DNA from: Gemmatimonadota bacterium
GTDB taxonomy: Bacteria > Gemmatimonadota > Gemmatimonadetes > Palauibacterales > Palauibacteraceae
Assembly: GCA_046757485.1 (NCBI GenBank)
Contig: JBHHYJ010000001.1
Location: forward strand, 48,319-112,318
Direction of reading: 5' to 3'
DNA: 64,000 bases
Shown here: piece by piece, positions 4,822-53,420 of the stretch
Numbering within the stretch: the stretch's first letter is position 1
Layout of the letters: every line of letters begins with the position of its first letter
Notes under the pieces: generated by a model
Databases searched by the model: none
What the model saw: the letters and a program-made list of their open reading frames with translations, nothing else
Told to the model about the DNA's origin: nothing
Position numbers and translations under genes: made by a program

Positions 4822-4942
4822 CCTGGGTGGATTCGCCTTCGCCTCAAGGTCTCGCGCGTGGCGCTCGACCGGCCGCTCCTTCGAAATGGCTCACGACATC
4901 GCGTCGTCGCCCCGCCCGACCCGCCTCCGGCGGGTGCCCGCT

Positions 4943-4995
4943 GGCCCCACGGCGCTCGTAACGCGGCCCGCCGTGGCTCTTCAACAGGCTTCTAG
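4943..4995 (-). repeat. REP-like element copy, inverted orientation (GGCCCCACGGCGCTCGTAACGCGGCCCGCCGTGGCTCTTCAACAGGCTTCTAG)
   Basis: Reverse complement matches the 38749..38799 copy almost base for base. Internal hairpin CCACGGCG / CGCCGTGG. Confidence 0.7.
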
Positions 4996-5098
4996 CTGCA
5001 AGAAGAGTGCGCGGCGCCTGGTTCCCGGTACCGGGGGCCGCTAGAATCTCCGCGGAAGCGTGATCGCCCTTCCGGCTTCGAAACCAAGGGAGGGAGAG

Positions 5099-5422
5099 AT
5101 GCCCCATTCGTTCGAAGAGCTGAAGGGGAAGACGGTCGCCCAGCTCCGGGAGATCGCCGAGGGGATCGAGCACGACGCGCTGCACGGCTTCAGCACGATG
5201 CACAAGGAGCACCTGATCCCGGCTCTCTGCGAAGCCCTCGGGATCGAGGCGCACGAGCATCACGAGGTCGTGGGAATCGACAAGTCGAAGGTGAAGGCCA
5301 GGATCCGGGAGTTGAAGACCGAGCGCGACACGGCCCTCGAGGCACGGGATCTGGAGGCCGCCCGTACGGCCCGCCGGGAGATCAAGAAGCTAAAGCGGAA
5401 GCTGCGCCGGGCGATCGTCTAG
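5099..5422 (+). CDS. small Rho_N (Rho termination factor N-terminal) domain-containing protein
   Basis: Strong RBS (AAGGGAGGGAGAG) before ATG 5099. FEELKGKTVAQLREIAEGIE resembles the Rho N-terminal helix bundle. Basic C-terminus. Confidence 0.6.
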   Translation: MPHSFEELKGKTVAQLREIAEGIEHDALHGFSTMHKEHLIPALCEALGIEAHEHHEVVGIDKSKVKARIRELKTERDTALEARDLEAARTARREIKKLKRKLRRAIV

Positions 5423-5450
5423 CAGCCTGTTGAAGAAACCCCCACGCGCC
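5419..5450 (+). repeat. REP-like element, partial copy (CTAGCAGCCTGTTGAAGAAACCCCCACGCGCC); its TAG is the stop codon of the Rho_N gene
   Basis: Shares the CTAG-AGCCTGTTGAAGA core. Confidence 0.5.
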
Positions 5451-5474
5451 CTGAGGGTGGGTGCAAGCACAGAT

Positions 5475-5512
5475 CTCCGCCTCGCTCCGGTTGCGGCGGC
5501 GTGGGGCCATCT
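5475..5512 (+). repeat. copy 2 of duplicated motif B
   Basis: CTCCGCCTCGCTCCGGTTGCGGCGGCGTGGGGCCATCT; about 120 bp upstream of tRNA-Leu. Confidence 0.55.
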
Positions 5513-17571: not shown

Positions 17572-18333
17572 ATGAGAGGAAGGATGAGGCGGATTGCGCC
17601 GCGGTGGACCCTGGCGCTGGCCGCGACGCTGACCGCCTGCGGAGGAGCGGCCGAGCGGCCGCGGAGCGAGTCGAGCCCCGACGGGGAGGAAGCCGTGCGA
17701 ACCGATCAGGAGACCGCGGAACCGAATCCGGCGCATGGCGGCGAGGGGGTGGACCTTCTCCTCGACCCCGCCGCCCCGGCCATGAATGAGACGGCCCCGG
17801 ACGAGTTCCAGGTGCGCTTCGAAACGTCGGAGGGGGAGTTCGTCGTCGCCGTGCACCGCGCCTGGTCTCCCCACGGGGTCGACCGCTTTTTCAACCTCGT
17901 CCAGGGCGGGTTCTACGACGGCGTGCGATTCTTCCGGGTCCTGCCCGGCTTCGTGGCGCAGTTCGGGATCAGCGGAGATCCCCGACGCTCCGCCGCCTGG
18001 CGCTCGGCCACGATCCCCGATGACCCGGTGGCCCACGGCAACGTGCGGGGGACCCTGAGCTTCGCGACGGCGGGCCCGGGAACGCGCACGACCCAGGTCT
18101 TCATCAACTTCGGCGACAACTCGCGCCTGGACGGGAGCGGGTTCTCTCCGTTCGGCGAGGTCGTGGAGGGGATGGAGGTCGTGGACCGGCTGTACGGCGG
18201 ATACGGGGAAGGCGCCCCTTCCGGCCGGGGTCCGAATCAGGCCCGCATCCAGAGCGAAGGCAACGCGTACCTGGAGAGCGAGTTCCCCGAGCTGGACTTC
18301 GTTCGCCGCGCCTATGTGGTGGAGCGGCCGTAG
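17572..18333 (+). CDS. peptidyl-prolyl cis-trans isomerase, cyclophilin type (lipoprotein)
   Basis: Lipoprotein signal (LAATLTACGG). Cyclophilin motifs (HRAWSPHGVDRFFNLVQGGFYDGVRFFRVLPGFVAQFG). Confidence 0.85.
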   Translation: MRGRMRRIAPRWTLALAATLTACGGAAERPRSESSPDGEEAVRTDQETAEPNPAHGGEGVDLLLDPAAPAMNETAPDEFQVRFETSEGEFVVAVHRAWSPHGVDRFFNLVQGGFYDGVRFFRVLPGFVAQFGISGDPRRSAAWRSATIPDDPVAHGNVRGTLSFATAGPGTRTTQVFINFGDNSRLDGSGFSPFGEVVEGMEVVDRLYGGYGEGAPSGRGPNQARIQSEGNAYLESEFPELDFVRRAYVVERP

Positions 18334-18375
18334 GAAGGAAAGAGCCCTGTTGCGGAGGCGCGACGGAATCCCCCT
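18330..18375 (+). repeat. REP-like element, diverged copy (TAGGAAGGAAAGAGCCCTGTTGCGGAGGCGCGACGG); its TAG is the PPIase stop codon
   Basis: Shares the AGCC(C)TGTTGC-GAG core. Confidence 0.35.
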
Positions 18376-22634: not shown

Positions 22635-24322
22635 GAGGCGGGAACAAGATCACCGCGAGCCAGCGGAAGGAGGAGATCGTACCGGAGGAGCACCGGCCGG
22701 ATCTCCCGGTGGAACGATTCCTTCTCGGCGAGGCTCCGAGCGACGAGGCCGTGCCGCTGGACGTGCTCATCGTCGGGGCCGGGCCCGCGGGCCTCGCGTG
22801 CGCGATCGAGCTCGCCCGCCTCTCGCGGAAGGAAGCCGCGGCGGACGATGCGGCCGCCTCGCTGGAGATCGGGGTGCTGGAGAAGGCCGCGGAGATCGGG
22901 GAGCACTGTCTCTCGGGAGCCGTGGTGAACCCCGAGCCGTTCCTGGAGCTGTTTCCCGAGCGATCGGTGGAGGAGCTGCCGTTCCGGGGTCCGGTCCCCC
23001 GCGATCGGGTGTATCTGCTGACGAAGAGGGGACGGGTGCGCCTCCCGACACCTCCGAGCATGCGCAACCATGGCAACCAGGTGGCGTCCATCTGCGAGGT
23101 CGCGCGCTGGATGGGCGAGCGGGCCGAGGCGCTCGGGGTGAACCTGTTCACGGGCTTTCCGGCCGATGCGCTGCTCGTGCCGGGTGGGAAGGTCGCCGGA
23201 GTGCGGACGACTCCGGCCGGCCTTCAGCGGGACGGGAGCCCGGGGAGCGGCTACCTGCCGCCCACGGACCTGACGGCCCGAGTCGTGGTCCTGGCGGAGG
23301 GCACGCGAGGCTCCCTGACGCAGGCCTGGTTGGCAAGCGAACGGGTCGCTTCTCCGAACCCTCAGATCTACGCCCTGGGCGTGAAGGAGCTGTGGCGGGT
23401 GAGGCGTCCCCCCACCGCCGTGATCCACACCCTGGGCTGGCCTCTCCCCCGAGACGCCTTCGGTGGAAGCTGGATGTACCCGATGGGCAAGGATCTCGTC
23501 TCCCTGGGACTGGTCGTCGGCCTCGACTACCCCGAGCAGTCCCTGGACGTGCACGAGCTGCTACAGCGGCTGAAGGAGCACCCGCTGTTCGCCGCCTGCC
23601 TGGAGGGAGGAGAGCTGGAGGAGTGGGGGGCGAAGACGATCCCCGAGGGGGGGTACCACGCCCTCCCGGAGAGGCTGCACGGCGAGGGCCTCCTGGTGGT
23701 GGGGGATGCGGCGGGTCTCGTGGACGTCGCGTCGCTGAAGGGGATCCACCACGCGGTGCGGTCGGGCATGCTGGCCGCGCGGGCCGCGTTCGAAGCCCTG
23801 CAGGCGGACGATCCCTCGGCCGCCCGGCTTTCGCGGTACGATGGGTGGCTGCGCGGCGGCCCCGTAGGCCGGGAGCTGTACCGGACGCGGAACATGCGTC
23901 TCGCGTTCCGGAGCGGCTTCTGGAAGGGCGGCGTGCGGGCCGCGCTGATGCAGCTCACGCGAGGAGCGTTTCCGGGCCGCCGCATCGCGGGAGAAGCGGA
24001 CGCGATGGTTCCCCGGAGGGTCCGGTCGTCCCCGCCTTTCGCTCCGGACGGGAAGCGGTCGTTCGGCAAGCTCGAGGCGGTGTACCGCTCGGGCAACGCC
24101 ACCCGGGACGACATCCCCTCCCATCTCATCGCGAAAGAGGAGGTTGCAGCGGAGATGGCGGAGTTCTACGCCCACATGTGTCCGGCGGGGGTGTACGAGC
24201 GGGGCCCCGCCGGCCTCGTCGTGAACGCCCCGAACTGCGTGGACTGCAAGGCGACGGACGTCCTCGGCCCTCGGTGGACTCCGCGGGAGGGAGGAAGCGG
24301 GCCCGCGTACAAGCGGATGTAG
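22631..24322 (+). CDS. electron-transfer flavoprotein-ubiquinone oxidoreductase (ETF-QO)
   Basis: FAD Rossmann motif (VLIVGAGPAGLACAIELA). C-terminal 4Fe-4S cysteine cluster (CPAGVYE...NCVDCKATD). ATGA overlap with the upstream gene. Confidence 0.85.
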   Translation: MRGGNKITASQRKEEIVPEEHRPDLPVERFLLGEAPSDEAVPLDVLIVGAGPAGLACAIELARLSRKEAAADDAAASLEIGVLEKAAEIGEHCLSGAVVNPEPFLELFPERSVEELPFRGPVPRDRVYLLTKRGRVRLPTPPSMRNHGNQVASICEVARWMGERAEALGVNLFTGFPADALLVPGGKVAGVRTTPAGLQRDGSPGSGYLPPTDLTARVVVLAEGTRGSLTQAWLASERVASPNPQIYALGVKELWRVRRPPTAVIHTLGWPLPRDAFGGSWMYPMGKDLVSLGLVVGLDYPEQSLDVHELLQRLKEHPLFAACLEGGELEEWGAKTIPEGGYHALPERLHGEGLLVVGDAAGLVDVASLKGIHHAVRSGMLAARAAFEALQADDPSAARLSRYDGWLRGGPVGRELYRTRNMRLAFRSGFWKGGVRAALMQLTRGAFPGRRIAGEADAMVPRRVRSSPPFAPDGKRSFGKLEAVYRSGNATRDDIPSHLIAKEEVAAEMAEFYAHMCPAGVYERGPAGLVVNAPNCVDCKATDVLGPRWTPREGGSGPAYKRM

Positions 24323-24339
24323 AGGGCCGGCGGGGGGCT

Positions 24340-26718
24340 CTACGGCGCGGAACCGGGCGGAGCCGCGCCGCCGCTTCCTGCCAGAAGTTCGGAGAGCAGC
24401 TCCCTGGCCCCGTAGGCGTTGCGGAGGGCCTCGAGGATCCCGGCGGAGTGCACCCCGACGGACCGGGCCGCCCGGGTCCGGAACAGGAACTCGTTCGGCA
24501 GTTGCTCGATGTTCCCGTCGAACGCCACCCCCACGATGCGGGCCTCCCGGTCGATGACCGGACTTCCGCTGTTCCCACCCGTGATGTCGTTGGTGGCCAC
24601 GAAATTCAACGGTGTCGAGAGGTCGATCTCCGCCCGCTTCGCCTCGAAGGCGGCCGACAGCTTCCAGGGCATCTCGTTGCCGAACTCCGCCGCCCGGGCG
24701 TACAGCCCGTAGAAGGTCGTGTAGGGCGGCGCGAACGTACCGTTGTACGGATAGCGACGGATCACGCCGTCGCTGATGCGAAGGGTGAAGGTCGCGTCGG
24801 GCGGCACGTCGGTCCCGAACGTGGCGAAGAGGGCGTCGGCCAGGCGCTCCTCCTGCACTTGCTCCGCCGAGGTGGTTGCCTCCCAGCGTGAGGCGAGCTC
24901 CGGGTAGACGCCCGCCATATGGGTGGCGAGCCCGAGCAGTGCGTCGCCGGTTCCCTCCAGGGAGCCGGGACCGCCCTCGAGAAGTCGCTGGCGATACCCG
25001 ACCTCCATGAGGCGCGAGCCGGAGATGAGCCGCCTGGCGGCCTCGGCGGGCGTCTCGCCCGCCCGGAACGCCAGCGACCGGAACGGATCGTCGGCCGGGA
25101 GGAACCGCTCGGCGATCTCCAGTCGGAGGGCGAGCAGGCTCTCGGCCACCTCGGGATCCGGACGCTGGGGTTGGCGCAGCAGAGCCTCCCTCTTGGCCAG
25201 CTCCTCTCCCCGGAACTCGGCGGAGCGCTCCGTCTCCGGCTTCGCCATCTCGTGCAGGTAGGTGACGAGCGTCCCCGCCACCGACTCGTACGGCCCTCCC
25301 AGGAAGTCCGGGTTGTTCACGTTGAGCGGCGGTGCGAGGCGGAACTTGTCGCGCTGGATCGCCTCCATCCGCTCCCACGCGTCCCCGTACTCGGCCGCCA
25401 AGCGCGGGTCTCCCTCTACGCGCCGCCGGAACTCTCTTTCCCACAGCATCTTTCGCCCGATGAGCGTGGTGTCTCTGAGACCGCCCAGCTGTCCACGAAA
25501 CGCCTTGAGGCTGTTCTCCACGCTGAACAGGTTGTCCCGTACGGCCCGAGCCGCCTGCGGGCCGCGCGAGGCGATGGACTGGAGCAGGGTCCGCTGGCCC
25601 TCGAGGATGGTGAGGATGAACGGGTGGCGGAACCGCTGTTCGTACATCAGCTCCGAGACGGTGGCCAGACGGCTCGTGGTTCCCGGGTTGCCCGTGATGA
25701 AGACAAGCTCGCCCTCCGCCGCGCCTTCCGGGTTCCATCGGAAGTAGTGAGGCGTGGCGGCTGCCGTCGTGCTGTCCGCCTCGTACGCCCGCACGAACGC
25801 CACGTCCAGATCGTACCGCGGATACGTGAAGTTGTCCGGATCGCCCCCGAAGTAGGCCGCCTGCAGCTCGGGGAGGAAGACGAGCTTCACGGGCGCGTAC
25901 CGCCGGTATTCGTATAGCTGATACTGGCCCCCGTGGTACAGCGTGACGACCTGGCAGGTGTGCCCGGAGTCCGCCTCGCACTCCGCCTCGGCGGCTCGCG
26001 CGGCCGAGTCCTGTGCGGCCACGGCGGCCTCGTCGGCCATGCCCGCCCGCGCCGCGCCCTTGATACGGTCGGTCACGTCGCTGATGCGGACGAGCTGGTC
26101 CAGGTAAAGGCCGGGGCACAGGATCTCCCGCTGGCGTGAGTCGGCGTAGAACCCGGCCTGCACGTGATCGTGCGTGGCGTCCGAGACCGCCTCGGCGCAC
26201 TCTCGCGCACAGTGGTGGTTCGTCATCACCAGGCCGTTCGGGGAGACGAAAGAGGCGGAGCAGATCTCTCCGAAGCGCACGGAGGAGAGTCGGACGTGCT
26301 CCAGCCACTCCGACGTGGGGCGGAATCCGTACGTGGAATCCCAGTAGCTGAGCGGGGGGTTCTCGAACGTCCACATCGTTCCTGTCTCGAGTCCCTCCAG
26401 CCGGGTCTGCTGGGACGCCCGCCGCGCGGCCGGAGACGGAAGAAGCGCTCCGGGGGCCCACGCCCCGACGTCGGCCTCACCGGGGCCGCCGGTGGTCTCC
26501 CGGGCCCGGCCGGCCGATCCTCGGGGAGCTTCCGGCGCCGCCGGCTCGCTCGGGGATGCGAGACCCACCCGTTGGGTCACCGAGCTCCGGGCCGCCGGAT
26601 CGGCCGCGGAGGTCCGGATGCCGCCCGATGCGCATCCTGCCACGGGAAGGAGCGCGGCGAGCGGGACCACGAAAGCCAGAACACCGGGCGGCTGTTTCTT
26701 CCACGTCAGGATCTTCAC
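24340..26718 (-). CDS. S46 family dipeptidyl-peptidase (DPP7/DPP11-like), lipoprotein
   Basis: Catalytic triad contexts: MTNHHC (His), TGGNSGSP (Ser), and the chymotrypsin-fold Asp region. Lipoprotein signal LLPVAGC. Confidence 0.85.
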   Translation of the reverse strand: MKILTWKKQPPGVLAFVVPLAALLPVAGCASGGIRTSAADPAARSSVTQRVGLASPSEPAAPEAPRGSAGRARETTGGPGEADVGAWAPGALLPSPAARRASQQTRLEGLETGTMWTFENPPLSYWDSTYGFRPTSEWLEHVRLSSVRFGEICSASFVSPNGLVMTNHHCARECAEAVSDATHDHVQAGFYADSRQREILCPGLYLDQLVRISDVTDRIKGAARAGMADEAAVAAQDSAARAAEAECEADSGHTCQVVTLYHGGQYQLYEYRRYAPVKLVFLPELQAAYFGGDPDNFTYPRYDLDVAFVRAYEADSTTAAATPHYFRWNPEGAAEGELVFITGNPGTTSRLATVSELMYEQRFRHPFILTILEGQRTLLQSIASRGPQAARAVRDNLFSVENSLKAFRGQLGGLRDTTLIGRKMLWEREFRRRVEGDPRLAAEYGDAWERMEAIQRDKFRLAPPLNVNNPDFLGGPYESVAGTLVTYLHEMAKPETERSAEFRGEELAKREALLRQPQRPDPEVAESLLALRLEIAERFLPADDPFRSLAFRAGETPAEAARRLISGSRLMEVGYRQRLLEGGPGSLEGTGDALLGLATHMAGVYPELASRWEATTSAEQVQEERLADALFATFGTDVPPDATFTLRISDGVIRRYPYNGTFAPPYTTFYGLYARAAEFGNEMPWKLSAAFEAKRAEIDLSTPLNFVATNDITGGNSGSPVIDREARIVGVAFDGNIEQLPNEFLFRTRAARSVGVHSAGILEALRNAYGARELLSELLAGSGGAAPPGSAP

Positions 26719-26835
26719 GCGTTTCTCCTCTCCCGTGTCGCAGGAACCGGGAGTCGAGAGCGGCGAAACGGTAGTCCGGGGCGCTCGCCTCCCGTGGGAC
26801 CGTGCGGCTATTCTAGACCCTCGGCATCAGATATC

Positions 26836-26880
26836 CTAGAAGCCCGTGGACGAACCGCGGTGGGCCGGGCGCGTGGGTCT
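26836..26880 (+). repeat. REP-like element copy in a divergent promoter region (CTAGAAGCCCGTGGACGAACCGCGGTGGGCCGGGCGCGTGGG)
   Basis: Shares the CTAGAAGCC head and the GC-rich hairpin body. Confidence 0.45.
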
Positions 26881-26957
26881 TGCCGAGGGCAGACCCGGAA
26901 CGAGGAGGAAGGCGATGCCGGAGCGGCTCACCCTCCCTCACCCGCAGCGGGGAAAGC

Positions 26958-27728
26958 GTGGCGAAACGGTACGTGGCGGAGCATCGCGGAAAGCTGTTCA
27001 ACCTGCTGTGGCCGTTGACCCGCTACCTGATCACGAACCTCTCCGTGGCGGTGGCGTTCGTCCTCTTTTTCCTCTTCAATCGGACCACCGTCCTGCGGAG
27101 GAGAAACGTTCCGCGTCGCAGGAACACCCTGCTCCTCTCCAACCATCAGTCGATGATCGACAGCTTTCTGGTCGGCATGTGCGCCTACTACCCGTGGTCG
27201 TGGCTGAAGCCGTCGCTCATTCCTTGGAACCCGGCCGCACAGGAGAACTTTTACGGCCAACCGCTGCTCGCCTGGTTCTCCGACCAGTGGAAGTGCATTC
27301 CCGTCCGGGAGGGCCGCCGGGACCTCAGGGCGCTGTACCGCATGATGACCGCGCTGCGTGGGGGCACGATGACGTTATTCCCCGAGGGCACACGGAGTCG
27401 GGACGGAAGCGTCGGCCCGGGACGCCCCGGGGCGGGTCTCCTGGTGCTCGGGAACCATCCCACCGTGATTCCGGTAGCGATCGACGGAATGGGAGACCTG
27501 CTTCCCGTGGGGTCCAGGTGGCCACGGCTGGGGAAGAGGGTGTACGTCTACTTCGGGCGGCCGTTCGACACCTCCGAGTTCCTGACCAGGCCGCGCTCCA
27601 AGGAGACCGCGCAGGAGCTGGTGGACCGGGTTCTCGTGACGATACGTCGCCAACAGCGGGCCGTGAGGCGTCTGCGCAGGTTCAGGGCCCGGTACGGTCG
27701 CGCCGCGAGTACCCCACGGCGCTCGTGA
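26958..27728 (+). CDS. 1-acyl-sn-glycerol-3-phosphate acyltransferase (PlsC/LPLAT family)
   Basis: HX4D motif (NHQSMIDSF) and FPEGTRS motif. The frame is open from TTG 26880; GTG 26958 is preferred (RBS GGGGAAAGC). Confidence 0.8.
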   Translation: MAKRYVAEHRGKLFNLLWPLTRYLITNLSVAVAFVLFFLFNRTTVLRRRNVPRRRNTLLLSNHQSMIDSFLVGMCAYYPWSWLKPSLIPWNPAAQENFYGQPLLAWFSDQWKCIPVREGRRDLRALYRMMTALRGGTMTLFPEGTRSRDGSVGPGRPGAGLLVLGNHPTVIPVAIDGMGDLLPVGSRWPRLGKRVYVYFGRPFDTSEFLTRPRSKETAQELVDRVLVTIRRQQRAVRRLRRFRARYGRAASTPRRS

Positions 27729-27765
27729 CGCGACCCGCCGTGGTTTTTCCACGGGCTTCGAGGAG
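27712..27765 (-). repeat. REP-like element copy, inverted orientation, overlapping the last codons and stop of plsC (CCCCACGGCGCTCGTGACGCGACCCGCCGTGGTTTTTCCACGGGCTTCGAGGAG)
   Basis: Perfect 8-bp stem CCACGGCG/CGCCGTGG with a 14-nt loop; same architecture as the 4943 and 38749 copies. Confidence 0.6.
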
Positions 27766-37374: not shown

Positions 37375-38752
37375 CCCCGTTCTTTCGGTGAGCGACGCGG
37401 GCACGATCGGTCGCCAGCTGCCCTGGTCCGAGGAGGCCGAGATCTCCGTGCTCGGTGGCATGCTCATCGACGGAGACGCGGTCGCCCGGGCGGTGGAGCT
37501 GATCAACGACGGCGCGTTCCTCCGGGAGGCGAACCGCCGTGTGTTCCGGGCGATGGCGCGTCTGTACAACCGGGGCGAGGTGATCGACGTCGTGACCCTG
37601 GCCGACGACCTCAAGTCCGCGGGGGAGCTGGAGACGGCGGGCGGGATGGCGTATCTGGCGCAGCTCGTGGACGCCGTGCCCACCGCCGCGAACATCGAGT
37701 ACCACTGCCGGATCCTGCGGGAGAAGGCGGTCCTTCGGCGACTCATCGAGTCGGCCTCCGAGATCATCCGGGACGCCTACGAGGCCCCGGCGGGCGAGGT
37801 GGATGAGACGCTGGACCGGGCGGAGCAACGAGTGTTCGAGATCGCCCAGGCCAGCCAGCGCTCCGGCTTCGTGTGGATCAAGGAGATCCTGTGGCCGACG
37901 TTCGAGCGGATCGAGGAGCTCCAGCGAAGTCCGGGGGCGGTCACCGGCATTCCGACCGGCTTTCCGGATCTGGACCACCTGACGGCCGGGCTGCAGCCGG
38001 CCGACCTGGTGATCCTCGCCGGCCGTCCGTCCATGGGCAAGACGGCGCTGGCGCTGAACCTTGCCCAACACGCCGCCATCGAGGCGGAGGTGCCGGTGGC
38101 CGTCTTTTCCCTGGAGATGGCCAAGGAGCAGCTCGTGCAGCGCCTGCTGTGTGCGGAGGGCCGCGTCGACTCGAGCCGCCTGCGACGCGGCTCGCTCGCC
38201 GACGACGAGTACGCCAGGCTGGCCACGGCGGCCGGTCACCTGAACACGGCCCCGATCTGGATCGATGACACGCCGGCGATCTCCGCTCTGGAGCTGCGAG
38301 CCAAGGCCCGGCGTCTGAAGGCGGAGGTGGATCTGGGCCTGATCATCGTGGACTACCTGCAGCTGATGGCGGGGCCTCGAAACGTGGAGAATCGACAACA
38401 GGAGATTAGCTCCATCTCCCGATCACTGAAGGCGGTAGCGAAGGAGCTCAACGTCCCGATCCTCGCCCTCTCCCAGCTCTCCCGGGCCCCGGAACAGCGC
38501 ACCGACCATCGTCCGGTCCTGGCGGATCTGAGGGAGTCGGGGGCGATCGAGCAGGACGCGGACCTCGTGCTCTTCGTGTACCGCGAGGAGGTGTACAAGA
38601 GCCGGGAGGACATCCTTCAGGACCCCGCGTTGGAGGGCAAGGCCGAGCTCATCGTCGGCAAGCAGAGAAACGGTCCCACCGGAGAAATCTCCCTCTTCTT
38701 TCACAAGGCGTACACCCTGTTCGACTCCGTTTCCAGGCGAGAGGAGGGCTAG
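37307..38752 (+). CDS. dnaB: replicative DNA helicase DnaB
   Basis: Walker A GRPSMGKTALALN. DnaB N-terminal domain (EAEISVLGGMLID). The start may be TTG 37367 (RBS GGAGGA). Confidence 0.9.
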   Translation: MPPGEGSGRWPGRDRRREDSLADPVLSVSDAGTIGRQLPWSEEAEISVLGGMLIDGDAVARAVELINDGAFLREANRRVFRAMARLYNRGEVIDVVTLADDLKSAGELETAGGMAYLAQLVDAVPTAANIEYHCRILREKAVLRRLIESASEIIRDAYEAPAGEVDETLDRAEQRVFEIAQASQRSGFVWIKEILWPTFERIEELQRSPGAVTGIPTGFPDLDHLTAGLQPADLVILAGRPSMGKTALALNLAQHAAIEAEVPVAVFSLEMAKEQLVQRLLCAEGRVDSSRLRRGSLADDEYARLATAAGHLNTAPIWIDDTPAISALELRAKARRLKAEVDLGLIIVDYLQLMAGPRNVENRQQEISSISRSLKAVAKELNVPILALSQLSRAPEQRTDHRPVLADLRESGAIEQDADLVLFVYREEVYKSREDILQDPALEGKAELIVGKQRNGPTGEISLFFHKAYTLFDSVSRREEG

Positions 38753-38799
38753 AAGCCTGTTGCAGAACCACGGCGGGTCGCGTTACGAGCGCCGGGGGG
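38749..38799 (+). repeat. REP-like element, best forward copy (CTAGAAGCCTGTTGCAGAACCACGGCGGGTCGCGTTACGAGCGCCGGGGGG); its TAG is the dnaB stop codon
   Basis: Matches the inverted copies at 4943..4995 and 27712..27765 almost base for base. Confidence 0.7.
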
Positions 38800-38881
38800 C
38801 CAGAGCGGAGGGCGACTCGCCCGGGGTCAGATCGAAGGCGGCGTGACACCGCGGTTTTCGGCAGATCTCGGGGCAGCGTAG

Positions 38882-39529
38882 GTGCGCTTCTCGGAGCTTC
38901 GGGTGGGGGGGGCGGATCCATCGACGGCACGGCGGGGGATCTTGGAGGCGGCAGCCCACCTGCGTGCGGGCGGGCTCCTGGTCCACCCGACCTCGACGCT
39001 GTACGGCATCGGGGGACGCTGCACCGCCGAGATCGACGGGCTCCTGGCGGCGATCAAGGGTCGGCCCGCCGGTGGGCGGTTCGTGCGCCTGGCAGCCGAC
39101 GTGGCCGCCGCGAAGGCGCTGCTGCCCGCGGGGTCGTGGGACGGGCGGGCGGAGAGCTTGAGCCGTGCCTTCTGGCCCGGGAGCCTGACGCTCGTGCTGG
39201 AGGACGGATCGCCGACCGGCGTCGCCGTGAGGGTCGACCCGGAGCCGTTCGTGCGCGCGGTCGTGACCGCTTTCGGAGAGCCGATCAGCTCGACGAGCGT
39301 GAATCGGACGGGGGAGCCGCCGGCCGTGGAGGTGGCGGCGGTGCGACGGTGGCTCGACGCCCTGGAAGACCCCGGCTGCCCGGTGACGTTCTTGAACGCG
39401 GGGCGCCGGCTGGCGGGCGTCCCCTCCACCATCCTCTCTCTCCGGGAGAGGCCGGCTCGGCTCGTCCGCGCGGGCGCCGTGCCCCGGGCCTCGCTGGCGG
39501 AGTGCCTGGAGGAGGAGGTGGTCTCCTGA
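38882..39529 (+). CDS. tsaC: L-threonylcarbamoyladenylate synthase (YrdC/TsaC type)
   Basis: YrdC-fold motifs (LVHPTSTLYGIGG; SSTSVNRTGEPP); 215 aa without the Sua5 C-domain. Confidence 0.8.
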   Translation: MRFSELRVGGADPSTARRGILEAAAHLRAGGLLVHPTSTLYGIGGRCTAEIDGLLAAIKGRPAGGRFVRLAADVAAAKALLPAGSWDGRAESLSRAFWPGSLTLVLEDGSPTGVAVRVDPEPFVRAVVTAFGEPISSTSVNRTGEPPAVEVAAVRRWLDALEDPGCPVTFLNAGRRLAGVPSTILSLRERPARLVRAGAVPRASLAECLEEEVVS

Positions 39530-40967: not shown

Positions 40968-42849
<1,882 letters not shown>

Positions 42850-45021: not shown

Positions 45022-45432
45022 ATGTTCACATTCTTGATCGTTCTGATGAGCCTTCTGGCGTTGCTGCTGATCGTCACCATTCTGCTCCAGTCGGGGAAGG
45101 GAGGGGGCCTGGCGGCCACGTTCGGCGGCGCTTCCTCCTCCACGGAATCCTTCATGGGAGGCCGCCAGGCGGCCACGGTGCTGACGAAGATGACCTGGAC
45201 GGGCGGGGGGTTGTTTCTCTTTCTCGCGCTCGTGCTGGCGATTCTCTCCTCCCGGAGCTCGGGTCCCCCCGAGTCGATCCTCCGCCAGGGGACGAGCCCG
45301 CAGCCGCTGGAGGCGCCCACCTCGGTCCTGCAAAGCGAGGCGGCTCCGGCGGAGACGACAGGGTCGCAGGAGGAGACGCCGGGCGAAGCTTCCGGGAGCG
45401 GAGAGCAGGAGCCTCGGCCGCCTGGGGGCTAG
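45022..45432 (+). CDS. secG: preprotein translocase subunit SecG
   Basis: LIVTILLQSGKGGGL SecG motif; follows gap-pgk-tpiA as in many bacteria. Confidence 0.8.
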   Translation: MFTFLIVLMSLLALLLIVTILLQSGKGGGLAATFGGASSSTESFMGGRQAATVLTKMTWTGGGLFLFLALVLAILSSRSSGPPESILRQGTSPQPLEAPTSVLQSEAAPAETTGSQEETPGEASGSGEQEPRPPGG

Positions 45433-45491
45433 AAGCCGCCAAGCCCCCACGCGCGCGGCCCACCGTGGTTCTTCAACAGGCTCCTAGCTAG
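45429..45491. repeat. back-to-back pair of REP-like elements forming a 63-bp palindromic unit between convergent secG and rnhA
   Basis: Plus-strand CTAGAAGCCGCC... starts at the secG stop. Minus-strand CTAGCTAGGAGCCTGTTGAAGAACCACGGTGGGCCGCGCGCGTGG starts at the rnhA stop. Confidence 0.6.
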
Positions 45492-52460: not shown

Positions 52461-53393
52461 ATGGAGAAGATCACGGTCGTAGGGGCGGGACACGTGGGCG
52501 CGACCACGGCCCAGCGCATCGCTGAACGGGAGCTGGCCCGGGAGGTCGTGCTCGTCGACATCGTCGAGGGCCTGCCGCAAGGCAAGGCGCTGGATCAGTG
52601 GGAGTCGGCCCCCGTCCAGGGCTTCGACACGCGGGTGCGGGGCAGCGAGTCGTACGAGGAAACGGCAGGCTCCGGGCTCTACGTGGTCACGGCAGGGCTG
52701 GCCAGAAAGCCGGGCATGAGCCGCGACGACCTGGTGACCAAGAACGCCTCCATCATCCGGGGGATCAGCGAGCAGATTCGCGTTCACAGCCCCGGCGCGA
52801 TCCTCGTCATGGTCACCAACCCCCTGGACGTCATGGCGTACGTGGCGAAGGAGGTCACGGGCTTTCCTCGGCGGCGGGTCGTGGGGATGGCCGGGGTGCT
52901 GGACACCGCGCGCTTCCGGAGCTTCATCGCGATGGAGCTCCAGGTGAGCGTGGAGGACGTCCAGGCGCTCGTCCTGGGAGGCCACGGCGACAGCATGGTT
53001 CCCGTCGTCAGCACCGTGTCGGTCGGGGGGATCCCGTTGACGCAGCTTCTCCCCGCCGAGCGGATCGAACGGCTGGTGGACCGGACGAGGAAGGGGGGCG
53101 GGGAGATCGTGGGGCTGCTGAAGACGGGCAGTGCATACTATGCCCCGTCGGCCGCCGCGGCCCAGATGGTGGAGTCCATCGTCCGAGACAAGAAACGCGT
53201 GCTCCCCTGCGCGGCGTGGCTGGAGGGGGAGTATGGCCTCGAGGGCCTCTTTCTGGGCGTTCCGTGCAAGCTGGGGCGAGGCGGCGTGGAGGCGATTCTA
53301 CAGGTCGGGCTGAACGCGGAGGAGCGGGCGGCTCTGAAGCGCTCCGCGGATGCCGTCCGTGCCACGATGGAACTCCTCGGGACCGGCTTCTAG
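52461..53393 (+). CDS. mdh: malate dehydrogenase (LDH-like type)
   Basis: NAD motif ITVVGAGHVGATTA. Substrate Arg contexts. 310 aa. Confidence 0.9.
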   Translation: MEKITVVGAGHVGATTAQRIAERELAREVVLVDIVEGLPQGKALDQWESAPVQGFDTRVRGSESYEETAGSGLYVVTAGLARKPGMSRDDLVTKNASIIRGISEQIRVHSPGAILVMVTNPLDVMAYVAKEVTGFPRRRVVGMAGVLDTARFRSFIAMELQVSVEDVQALVLGGHGDSMVPVVSTVSVGGIPLTQLLPAERIERLVDRTRKGGGEIVGLLKTGSAYYAPSAAAAQMVESIVRDKKRVLPCAAWLEGEYGLEGLFLGVPCKLGRGGVEAILQVGLNAEERAALKRSADAVRATMELLGTGF

Positions 53394-53420
53394 AAGCCTT
53401 TTAACGTTTCGGAGTCGGGG
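53390..53420 (+). repeat. REP-like element, partial copy (CTAGAAGCCTTTTAACGTTTCGG...); its TAG is the mdh stop codon
   Basis: Shares the CTAGAAGCCT head. Confidence 0.4.

Follow-up and report, generated by a model that had tools for sequence, protein, structure and literature searches.

What is a repeat of about 50 nt doing on the stop codon of dnaB (38749–38799), and why do similar repeats sit on the stop codons of other genes in the same 64 kb of Gemmatimonadota DNA? The first-pass annotation of this stretch (hereafter the window, meaning the whole 64 kb that was analysed) saw a family of REP-like or terminator-like elements anchored on stop codons. We propose a different reading, namely that the repeats in the window are very probably decayed copies (solo ends, relics and one mini-copy) of a family of non-autonomous transposons with terminal inverted repeats (MITEs) that belongs to the Gemmatimonadota.

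The repeat family in the window

The window has a GC content of about 70% and a positive GC skew throughout, its DnaB is identical to one annotated in a Gemmatimonadota MAG, and near-identical DNA (99.98–99.99%) is contained in the Logan assemblies of SRR29324609 and SRR29324611. A repeat family does exist at essentially the coordinates first noted. An nhmmer profile made from the copies gives seven matches with E-values between 3e-14 and 5e-10, at 4940–4997 (minus strand), 5417–5477 (plus), 26834–26890 (plus), 27706–27764 (minus), 38748–38805 (plus), 41720–41774 (plus) and 45429–45489 (minus), and no other significant match in the window. CTAGAAGCC occurs eight times as against 0.14 expected from shuffles, and because of this excess we also count the short relics at 29–41 and 53385–53398 as real. 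The 26-mer at 38752 recurs on the minus strand at 4967 and 45459, and comparison of the repeats in the window links 4941, 27712, 38749, 26836, 41722 and 45437–45487 with one another.

Short GC-rich inverted repeats are common in the window (947 inverted pairs), and one might suspect that the similarity is due to chance or is a compositional artefact of a high-GC genome. However, the 26-mer has three matches where 0.00 are expected, and this, together with the CTAGAAGCC count, the nhmmer E-values and the recurrence of a 31-mer terminus in dozens of contigs from other samples, refutes coincidence as the whole explanation, a possibility that the first-pass annotation had itself raised; we give it a negligible probability.

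The count of at least ten copies stands in part, as seven clear copies and two short relics. The copy placed at 18330–18375 (plus) is unsupported (nhmmer E=78) and was rejected, there being only a weak AGCCCTGTTG resemblance 9 nt past the stop codon of the PPIase gene, which is a GTAG stop. The near-identity reported for the copies at 4941 (given as 4943), 27712 and 38749 holds, as these are 86–93% alike across 51–56 nt. The sequence common to the copies of the family is (C)TA-GAAGCCTGTTG(A/C)AGA(A/G)C (hyphens here and below mark element boundaries), and the part downstream varies from copy to copy. What is conserved is a terminal inverted repeat of 17–31 nt beginning GAAGCCTGTTGAAGAAC, not the hairpin. 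The copies are one-ended fragments of about 20–77 nt, except for that at 45429–45491, which is an internally deleted mini-element with both termini. The window therefore holds remnants of unequal length and not copies of a fixed 50-nt unit.

Complete elements in other Gemmatimonadota

A scan of genome contigs with a loose 17-mer gave, among the matches listed, mostly chance similarities, together with six useful Gemmatimonadota loci that carry the 17-mer of the window copies. At L004 and L041 the 17-mer forms both arms of a TA-flanked palindrome of about 51 nt, and at L091 an element of 272 nt is enclosed by two inverted copies, a second copy of this element being present at L082. A metagenome scan with a 28-nt pattern that starts inside the repeat, so that the flanks were unselected, returned 25 contigs, and on most of these a fuzzy search placed the terminus in plus/minus pairs 212–395 nt apart.

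The intact members, 212–395 nt long, have terminal inverted repeats of about 31 nt (GAAGCCTGTTGAAGAACTACGG(C/T)GGG(T/C)CGCG) and two distinguishable subterminal regions, which we term End A and End B, and complete elements have near-identical interiors in different genomic contexts. About 20 complete copies have the 31-nt inverted termini (L115–L139, L091, L146 and L148), and mini-forms are represented by L004, L041 and the window element at 45429–45491. The terminus is preceded mostly by CTA and less often by TTA, the usual flanking arrangement being CTA-G...C-TAG. Nearly all the complete copies have TA next to at least one terminus (about 8 of 21 next to both, more than half next to one only), one copy has CA/CA, and the G that follows the TA is invariant even where the TA is mutated. 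Two further lineages that were reached through the spurious ORF of the element (L146/L147 and L148) have the same architecture, with CTA-G...C-TAG flanks.

The sole internal ORF is of 36–79 aa and has only short homologues, none of them a transposase. The idea that this ORF, with its Shine–Dalgarno sequence and ATG, encodes a real micro-protein was rejected: differences are spread evenly over the codon positions (688/599/576), and the C-terminal frame is not kept.

A REP or REPIN, or a derivative of an IS200/IS605 element, that a Y1 (HUH) transposase (a RAYT, for instance) mobilised in single-stranded form and inserted 3′ of CTAG without duplication, could give units that look much like those of the window. 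These are one-ended, stand directly 3′ of CTAG, all in one orientation and with a hairpin next, and have no second TA visible at their inner ends; the very short, fully palindromic forms at L004 and L041 are also REPIN-like, and short GC-rich extragenic repeats near gene ends, some with near-perfect palindromic mini-forms, are a likeness to REP/REPIN-RAYT systems. We nevertheless think this explanation quite improbable, as in the complete copies a single 31-nt sequence stands at either end in inverted orientation, with (C)TA outside each, whereas to our knowledge IS200/IS605 elements and REPs are without terminal inverted repeats and have the target on one side only. The conserved head is CTA-GAAGCC... 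(GAAGCCTGTTGAAGAAC) and not GTAG or GGAG, the terminal repeat is non-palindromic, and a REP head with a conserved imperfect palindrome of 20–40 nt is not what is found here, the palindrome differing between copies and between lineages. The statement that the window encodes no RAYT was correct, in that neither transposase nor RAYT domains turned up in those of its ORFs for which there was a scan or a precomputed Pfam result, and none of the annotated loci showed a RAYT or Y1 gene.

Integron attC sites were likewise considered and rejected, as the neighbours are housekeeping genes and the RYYYAAC/GTTRRRY cores are absent.

The window copies as parts of the element

The homology between window copies and the ends of the complete MITEs extends past the terminal repeat. 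The copy at 4913–4995 (minus) is a one-ended End-A fragment of about 77–83 nt, its outer terminus being the G at 4992 and its CTAG lying at 4992–4995; the segment 4913–4996 aligns with End A of a full MITE over about 85–95 nt (E 9e-13). It has a perfect 8-bp stem, CCACGGCG/CGCCGTGG, and is placed off any stop codon, in the 5′ intergenic DNA that precedes the Rho_N-like gene (5060–5422). That gene itself ends in a terminal-repeat relic of about 20 nt at 5419–5441 (plus), CTA-GCAGCCTGTTGAAGAAA, in which the TAG at 5420–5422 is the stop.

A private terminal variant, GAAGCCCGTGGA, is found in two copies. One is an End-B-type fragment of about 35 nt at 26836–26875 (plus), situated between two divergent genes, that of the S46 peptidase and plsC, and, like the copy at 4941 (minus), in 5′ intergenic DNA off any stop codon. 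The other, at 27706–27762 (minus), is an End-A-type fragment of about 52 nt with a perfect 8-bp stem and is preceded by CTCG rather than CTAG. This inverted copy does overlap the end of plsC, as first reported: it contains the last ~7 codons, and the plsC TGA (27726–27728) falls inside it.

The dnaB copy itself, at 38749–38811 (plus), is an End-A fragment whose alignment with End A spans 60 nt; it has an imperfect stem, CGCCGGGG, and its TAG at 38750–38752 is the dnaB stop. Beyond this copy radA is missing, while in relatives radA follows dnaB. A one-ended fragment of about 50 nt at 41722–41775 (plus) lies between comF and the gene gap, and its TAG at 41723–41725 is the comF stop.

The repeat at 45429–45491 is present as noted, but what had been taken for a back-to-back pair is a single small element with both termini, reading CTA-GAAGCC...(End-B repeat, reverse complement)...GGCTCC-TAG and then CTAG, with both flanking TA kept. 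Its left TAG (45430–45432) is the secG stop, the terminus at 45487 is of the End-B type, and the rnhA stop is the next minus-strand TAG (45490–45488), separate from the TAG of the element and 4 nt upstream of it (CTAGCTAGG). Excision of 45429–45491 in silico leaves GGCTAGCTAGG, in which two convergent stop codons are adjacent.

The two shortest relics, at 29 and 53390, retain 9–13 nt. The first (29–41, plus) consists of CTAG and the first 10 nt of the terminal repeat (GAAGCCTGTT; nhmmer E=0.37), and its TAG at 30–32 ends a gene that runs off the window. The second (53385–53398) is palindromic, GGCTTC-TA-GAAGCC, that is, a right terminus, a TA and a left terminus, and its TAG at 53391–53393 is the mdh stop. 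The claim that the TAG of the element is the actual stop of the upstream gene thus applies to five of the genes named (the Rho_N-like gene, dnaB, comF, secG and mdh) and fails for rnhA and the PPIase gene.

Association with CTAG and with stop codons

CTAG is scarce in the window, with 19 sites where trinucleotides predict 33 and base composition predicts 176, and 10 of the 19 are touched by an element. All seven in-frame CTAG stops carry an element, compared with none of the approximately 10 GTAG or ATAG stops and none of the 34 TGA stops (by our own Fisher-type count, p ~5e-5 for 7/7 versus 0/10). The association is therefore with CTAG and not with stop codons as such, and in this it matches the flanks recovered without bias elsewhere.

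Outside the window, about 7–12 of some 50 non-redundant ends in the phylum lie exactly on a coding-looking stop codon, and several more lie within 21 nt of one. The habit recurs in independent lineages: at L146/L147 the left end coincides with the stop codon of a sigma-54 activator gene, with CTA-G...C-TAG flanks, and at L148 it coincides with the XdhC stop. The anchoring on stop codons is explained by target choice together with selection, and a function need not be invoked.

Orthologous sites in syntenic relatives

Four relatives with the same gene order were compared with the window; their DnaB proteins are 86–91% identical and the other proteins 50–80%, which makes them close only at the genus level. 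No copy is present at any orthologous site, or anywhere else, in the four syntenic stretches (4 x 21 kb), whereas five insertions account for six termini in the corresponding 20 kb of the window. The ends of dnaB, comF, secG, rnhA and plsC in the relatives are ordinary TGA, TAG or TAA stops followed by unrelated sequence, and in dnaB and comF the stop falls at the same codon as that of the window gene. This absence points to recent insertions rather than to a conserved signal at gene ends. The copies are dispersed and polymorphic for presence, with nine insertion relics in the 64 kb window and none in the relatives.

Hairpins and the question of a 3′-end signal

The consensus stem quoted in the first-pass annotation, CGCCGTGG, is absent from the dnaB copy itself, which has CGCCGGGG at 38749. 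Of the proposed GC stem of 8–9 bp, a perfect 8-bp form with a 14-nt loop is found at 4941 and 27712, two of the seven copies; the others fold in unrelated ways, and the stem is not conserved in homologous ends elsewhere. Compared with shuffled sequence, the fold energies of the copies are not unusual for their composition (z -1.7 to +1.1). Inspection of the sequence bears out the lack of a U tract, there being no T run after any copy, so that, with a loop of 14 nt as well, the usual features of an intrinsic terminator (GC stem, short loop, U tract) are not combined here. None of the terminator-like sites in the window coincides with a copy. With the Rfam 15 covariance models the sole gathering-level match in the window is a tRNA-Leu, the region 38700–38900 is without a match at E<=1, and a full MITE has one chance miRNA match (E 0.17). 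The description of the repeat as REP-like or terminator-like is thus not sustained: the conserved module is a non-palindromic terminal inverted repeat and the hairpin is not family-wide.

These results also weigh against the idea that the module and its GC hairpin form a functional RNA element, which selection would have placed right after stop codons to substitute for a terminator, to stabilise mRNA 3′ ends or to bind a protein. Copies do lie directly after the stop codons of housekeeping genes, three of them have in common an 8-bp GC stem that is stronger than that in the homologous End A of other lineages, and co-transcribed MITE hairpins can alter the fate of RNA in other bacteria, as with the Correia elements. 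Yet such an element would have to be reconciled with its absence from all the orthologous gene ends in four relatives, with the variable folding and the missing U tract, and with homologues that are transposon-like and have repeats at both ends. The placement of the copies is a further difficulty, as two are in 5′ intergenic DNA, one is inside a coding end, and most are flanked by co-directional genes. A selected RNA signal is in our judgement highly improbable.

Transposase search and comparison with known elements

A partner for the element was sought in several ways. Searches of the window and of about 0.7 Mb of Gemmatimonadota loci brought up neither an autonomous element nor a transposase that has these termini, and the loci searched have no plus/minus pairs of termini at the spacing of an IS. 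The genes called in the relatives along the syntenic stretch gave no transposase domain either. Pfam searches of the ORFs beside solo ends gave MscS, a methyltransferase and an unrelated IS110 transposase, none of them a partner, the MITE ORF used as a query retrieved short ORFs only, and blastn of a full MITE against plasmids returned nothing.

The termini begin GA or GG and contain a ...TG..GAA.AA pattern, which we take to be reminiscent of IS5-family ends. ISY100 has a strong preference for TA. Among described elements, IS630 inserts at the TA in 5′-CTAG-3′ (Tenzen & Ohtsubo 1991, as it appears in the reference list of PMC2170065); IS1301, of the IS5 family, has the target AYTAG and duplicates TA (PMC2193550); and the IS5-derived MITEPsy1 inserts after CTAG or YTAA (PMC3189936). 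By analogy, the present family would work like IS630, IS1301 and MITEPsy1 in its targeting. With IS630/Tc1-mariner elements and bacterial MITEs it has in common terminal inverted repeats, TA on both sides, a preference for CTAG, small non-coding derivatives and many copies; it differs in that no IS630-type transposase with these termini was found and in that the TA duplication is here deduced, and its termini, starting GAAGCC..., were not matched to any described IS630 member. With IS5 elements (IS427/IS1301 and MITEPsy1) the likeness lies in the YTAG/CTAG target and in the known MITE derivatives of about 100 nt, and the difference in that no IS5-type transposase partner was identified for the present family. 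Its flanks fit IS630/Tc1-mariner targets and also those of the IS5/IS427 type. MITEPsy1, however, duplicates 4 nt, whereas the invariance of the G after the TA when the flank differs suggests that the G belongs to the element and that only TA is duplicated. Given that CTAG is palindromic, a 4-bp duplication of CTAG (IS5-like), or a CTAG belonging to the element, may be the alternative.

The Correia elements of Neisseria offer another comparison. These are short, with terminal inverted repeats and TA flanks, and occur in hundreds of copies beside genes; they are co-transcribed, form hairpins, and have length variants that arise through internal deletion. The present family is unrelated in sequence and in phylum, its coupling to CTAG stops is much stricter, and the promoter, IHF-site and RNase III functions are properties of Correia elements that are not evidenced in it.

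A model for accumulation at stop codons

The homology, the repeats at both ends, their flanks, the pattern of presence and absence and the association with CTAG only are direct observations, and a plausible history can be built upon them. In this model a DDE-type transposase supplied in trans, probably IS630/Tc1-mariner-like or IS5/IS427-IS1301-like, would take the TA of a CTAG-like site as the target for the element and would duplicate that TA, as we infer from the flanks, to give CTA-G...C-TAG. CTAG is rare in a genome of 70% GC, and an in-frame TAG inside a gene can only be its stop codon. Insertion into the TA of a stop codon would be tolerated because the first G of the element restores TAG after the TA, leaving the gene product unchanged; in a second frame the repeat provides a TGA within 15 nt, and insertions elsewhere in genes would be purged. 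Later deletions would strip the interior and the gene-distal end and, as they could not cross the gene, would leave a tag of terminal repeat on the stop codon, which would account for the one-ended copies.

Two observations sit less comfortably with a MITE. The occupancy of all seven CTAG stops is high for random transposition and counts against it, and the short unit of about 52 nt, with a strengthened stem, that is common to three window copies could itself have spread. A more elaborate variant is a "stop-codon-homing" MITE, in which the termini (G...C beside TA, and within 15 nt a TAG and a TGA that cover two of the three frames) would have become adapted to exploit amber CTAG stops as safe havens, and the retained gene-proximal ends, three of them with the strengthened 8-bp stem, would have been co-opted as 3′-UTR modules, for instance as stabilising hairpins or protein-binding sites. 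We consider this variant unlikely; if true, it would represent a phylum-wide system shaping the gene ends of the Gemmatimonadota.

Significance

We found no paper that describes a MITE of the Gemmatimonadota. The family is apparently undescribed, yet a MITE is a known kind of element, so that what is documented here, in a poorly studied phylum, is a new family and not a new kind of biology. It matters for the annotation of Gemmatimonadota MAGs, as the elements break assemblies, create spurious ORF calls of 60–90 aa (118 clusters at 50% identity), and alter C-termini by replacement or extension (plsC, an MscS gene and several longer proteins are examples). The elements may also lie at rearrangement breakpoints, for example beside dnaB where radA is missing. 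More generally, the family offers a mechanistic reason why a repeat that is no signal can nevertheless appear anchored on stop codons: a MITE that targets CTAG/TA and whose first base restores TAG will accumulate at stop codons in a high-GC genome.

In the four syntenic relatives that lack MITE copies (L140–L143, with DnaB 86–91% identical to that of the window), dnaB is always followed by radA and then sua5, and in two of the four ispD also lies between them. The dnaB-to-sua5 interval accordingly carries radA, with or without ispD, at L140 11420–12790, L141 11396–13464, L142 11394–13594 and L143 11400–12755. In the window (38752–38975), dnaB is separated from sua5 by the 60-nt MITE remnant and a further stretch of about 75 nt, and a tblastn search of the whole 64 kb did not find radA. 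From this comparison of gene order, the remnant after dnaB appears to coincide with the breakpoint of a deletion or relocation.

A short form is also seen at L148 1000–1057 (−), a mini-MITE whose length is about 58 nt and whose termini (GGAGGCTGCTGAAGAAC ... CTCTTCAGCAACCTGC) have diverged. It comes immediately after the TAG that closes an outer-membrane efflux gene, with the junction TAG-TA|G, and indicates that the short palindromic form of the MITE arises repeatedly. At another Gemmatimonadota locus, L128 (45–1463; also L129), a solo MITE terminus with the flank CTA|G lies about 270 nt beyond the end of a gene for an IS110-family (DEDD) transposase. This transposase may belong to an IS110/IS1111-type element inserted beside, or targeting, the MITE end.

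The stop codon of mdh (window 53385–53398) is situated within a perfect palindrome, GGCTTC-TA-GAAGCC, which corresponds to a right terminus, TA and a left terminus, and the element may have contributed the final two codons of mdh (Gly-Phe). Insertion of a MITE into CTAG would create a new CTAG at either end, so nested or tandem hits could be favoured; compare CTAGCTAG at 45484–45491.

At 26839–27759, an End-B fragment, 26839(+), and an End-A fragment, 27759(−), are in the mutual orientation that they have in one element. Both carry the same two private terminal substitutions (GAAGCCcGTgGA), and what they enclose is exactly plsC, a gene that in the relatives is syntenic and without the repeat. 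The two ends with plsC between them may be a nascent composite unit. Elsewhere in the window, a gene ending at 24322 (+) and the S46 peptidase gene (−) are convergent, with 17 nt between them; a short GC-rich inverted repeat (GTAGAG...CTCTAC; 24314–24348), unrelated to the MITE family, contains the TAG stops of both genes in its arms.

Full MITEs contain GGAGGAG followed by an ATG ORF (MDQPRDPPAP...; L132 9153–9389, with equivalents in L115–L136, L146 and L148) of 36–79 aa with in-frame length variants, which runs out across the End-A repeat and is closed by the flanking TA plus G. This ORF probably does not encode a real protein, because substitutions are even across codon positions (688/599/576); gene callers still report it, and at 50% identity these calls form 118 clusters. 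In some longer proteins only the C-terminal end matches the ORF profile, namely in P0157 (451 aa, match 392–451), P0186 (384 aa, match 328–383) and P0203, and an MscS gene (L123 7–1293) terminates within an inverted solo MITE end, as plsC does in the window. These cases suggest that the MITE repeatedly rewrites C-termini.
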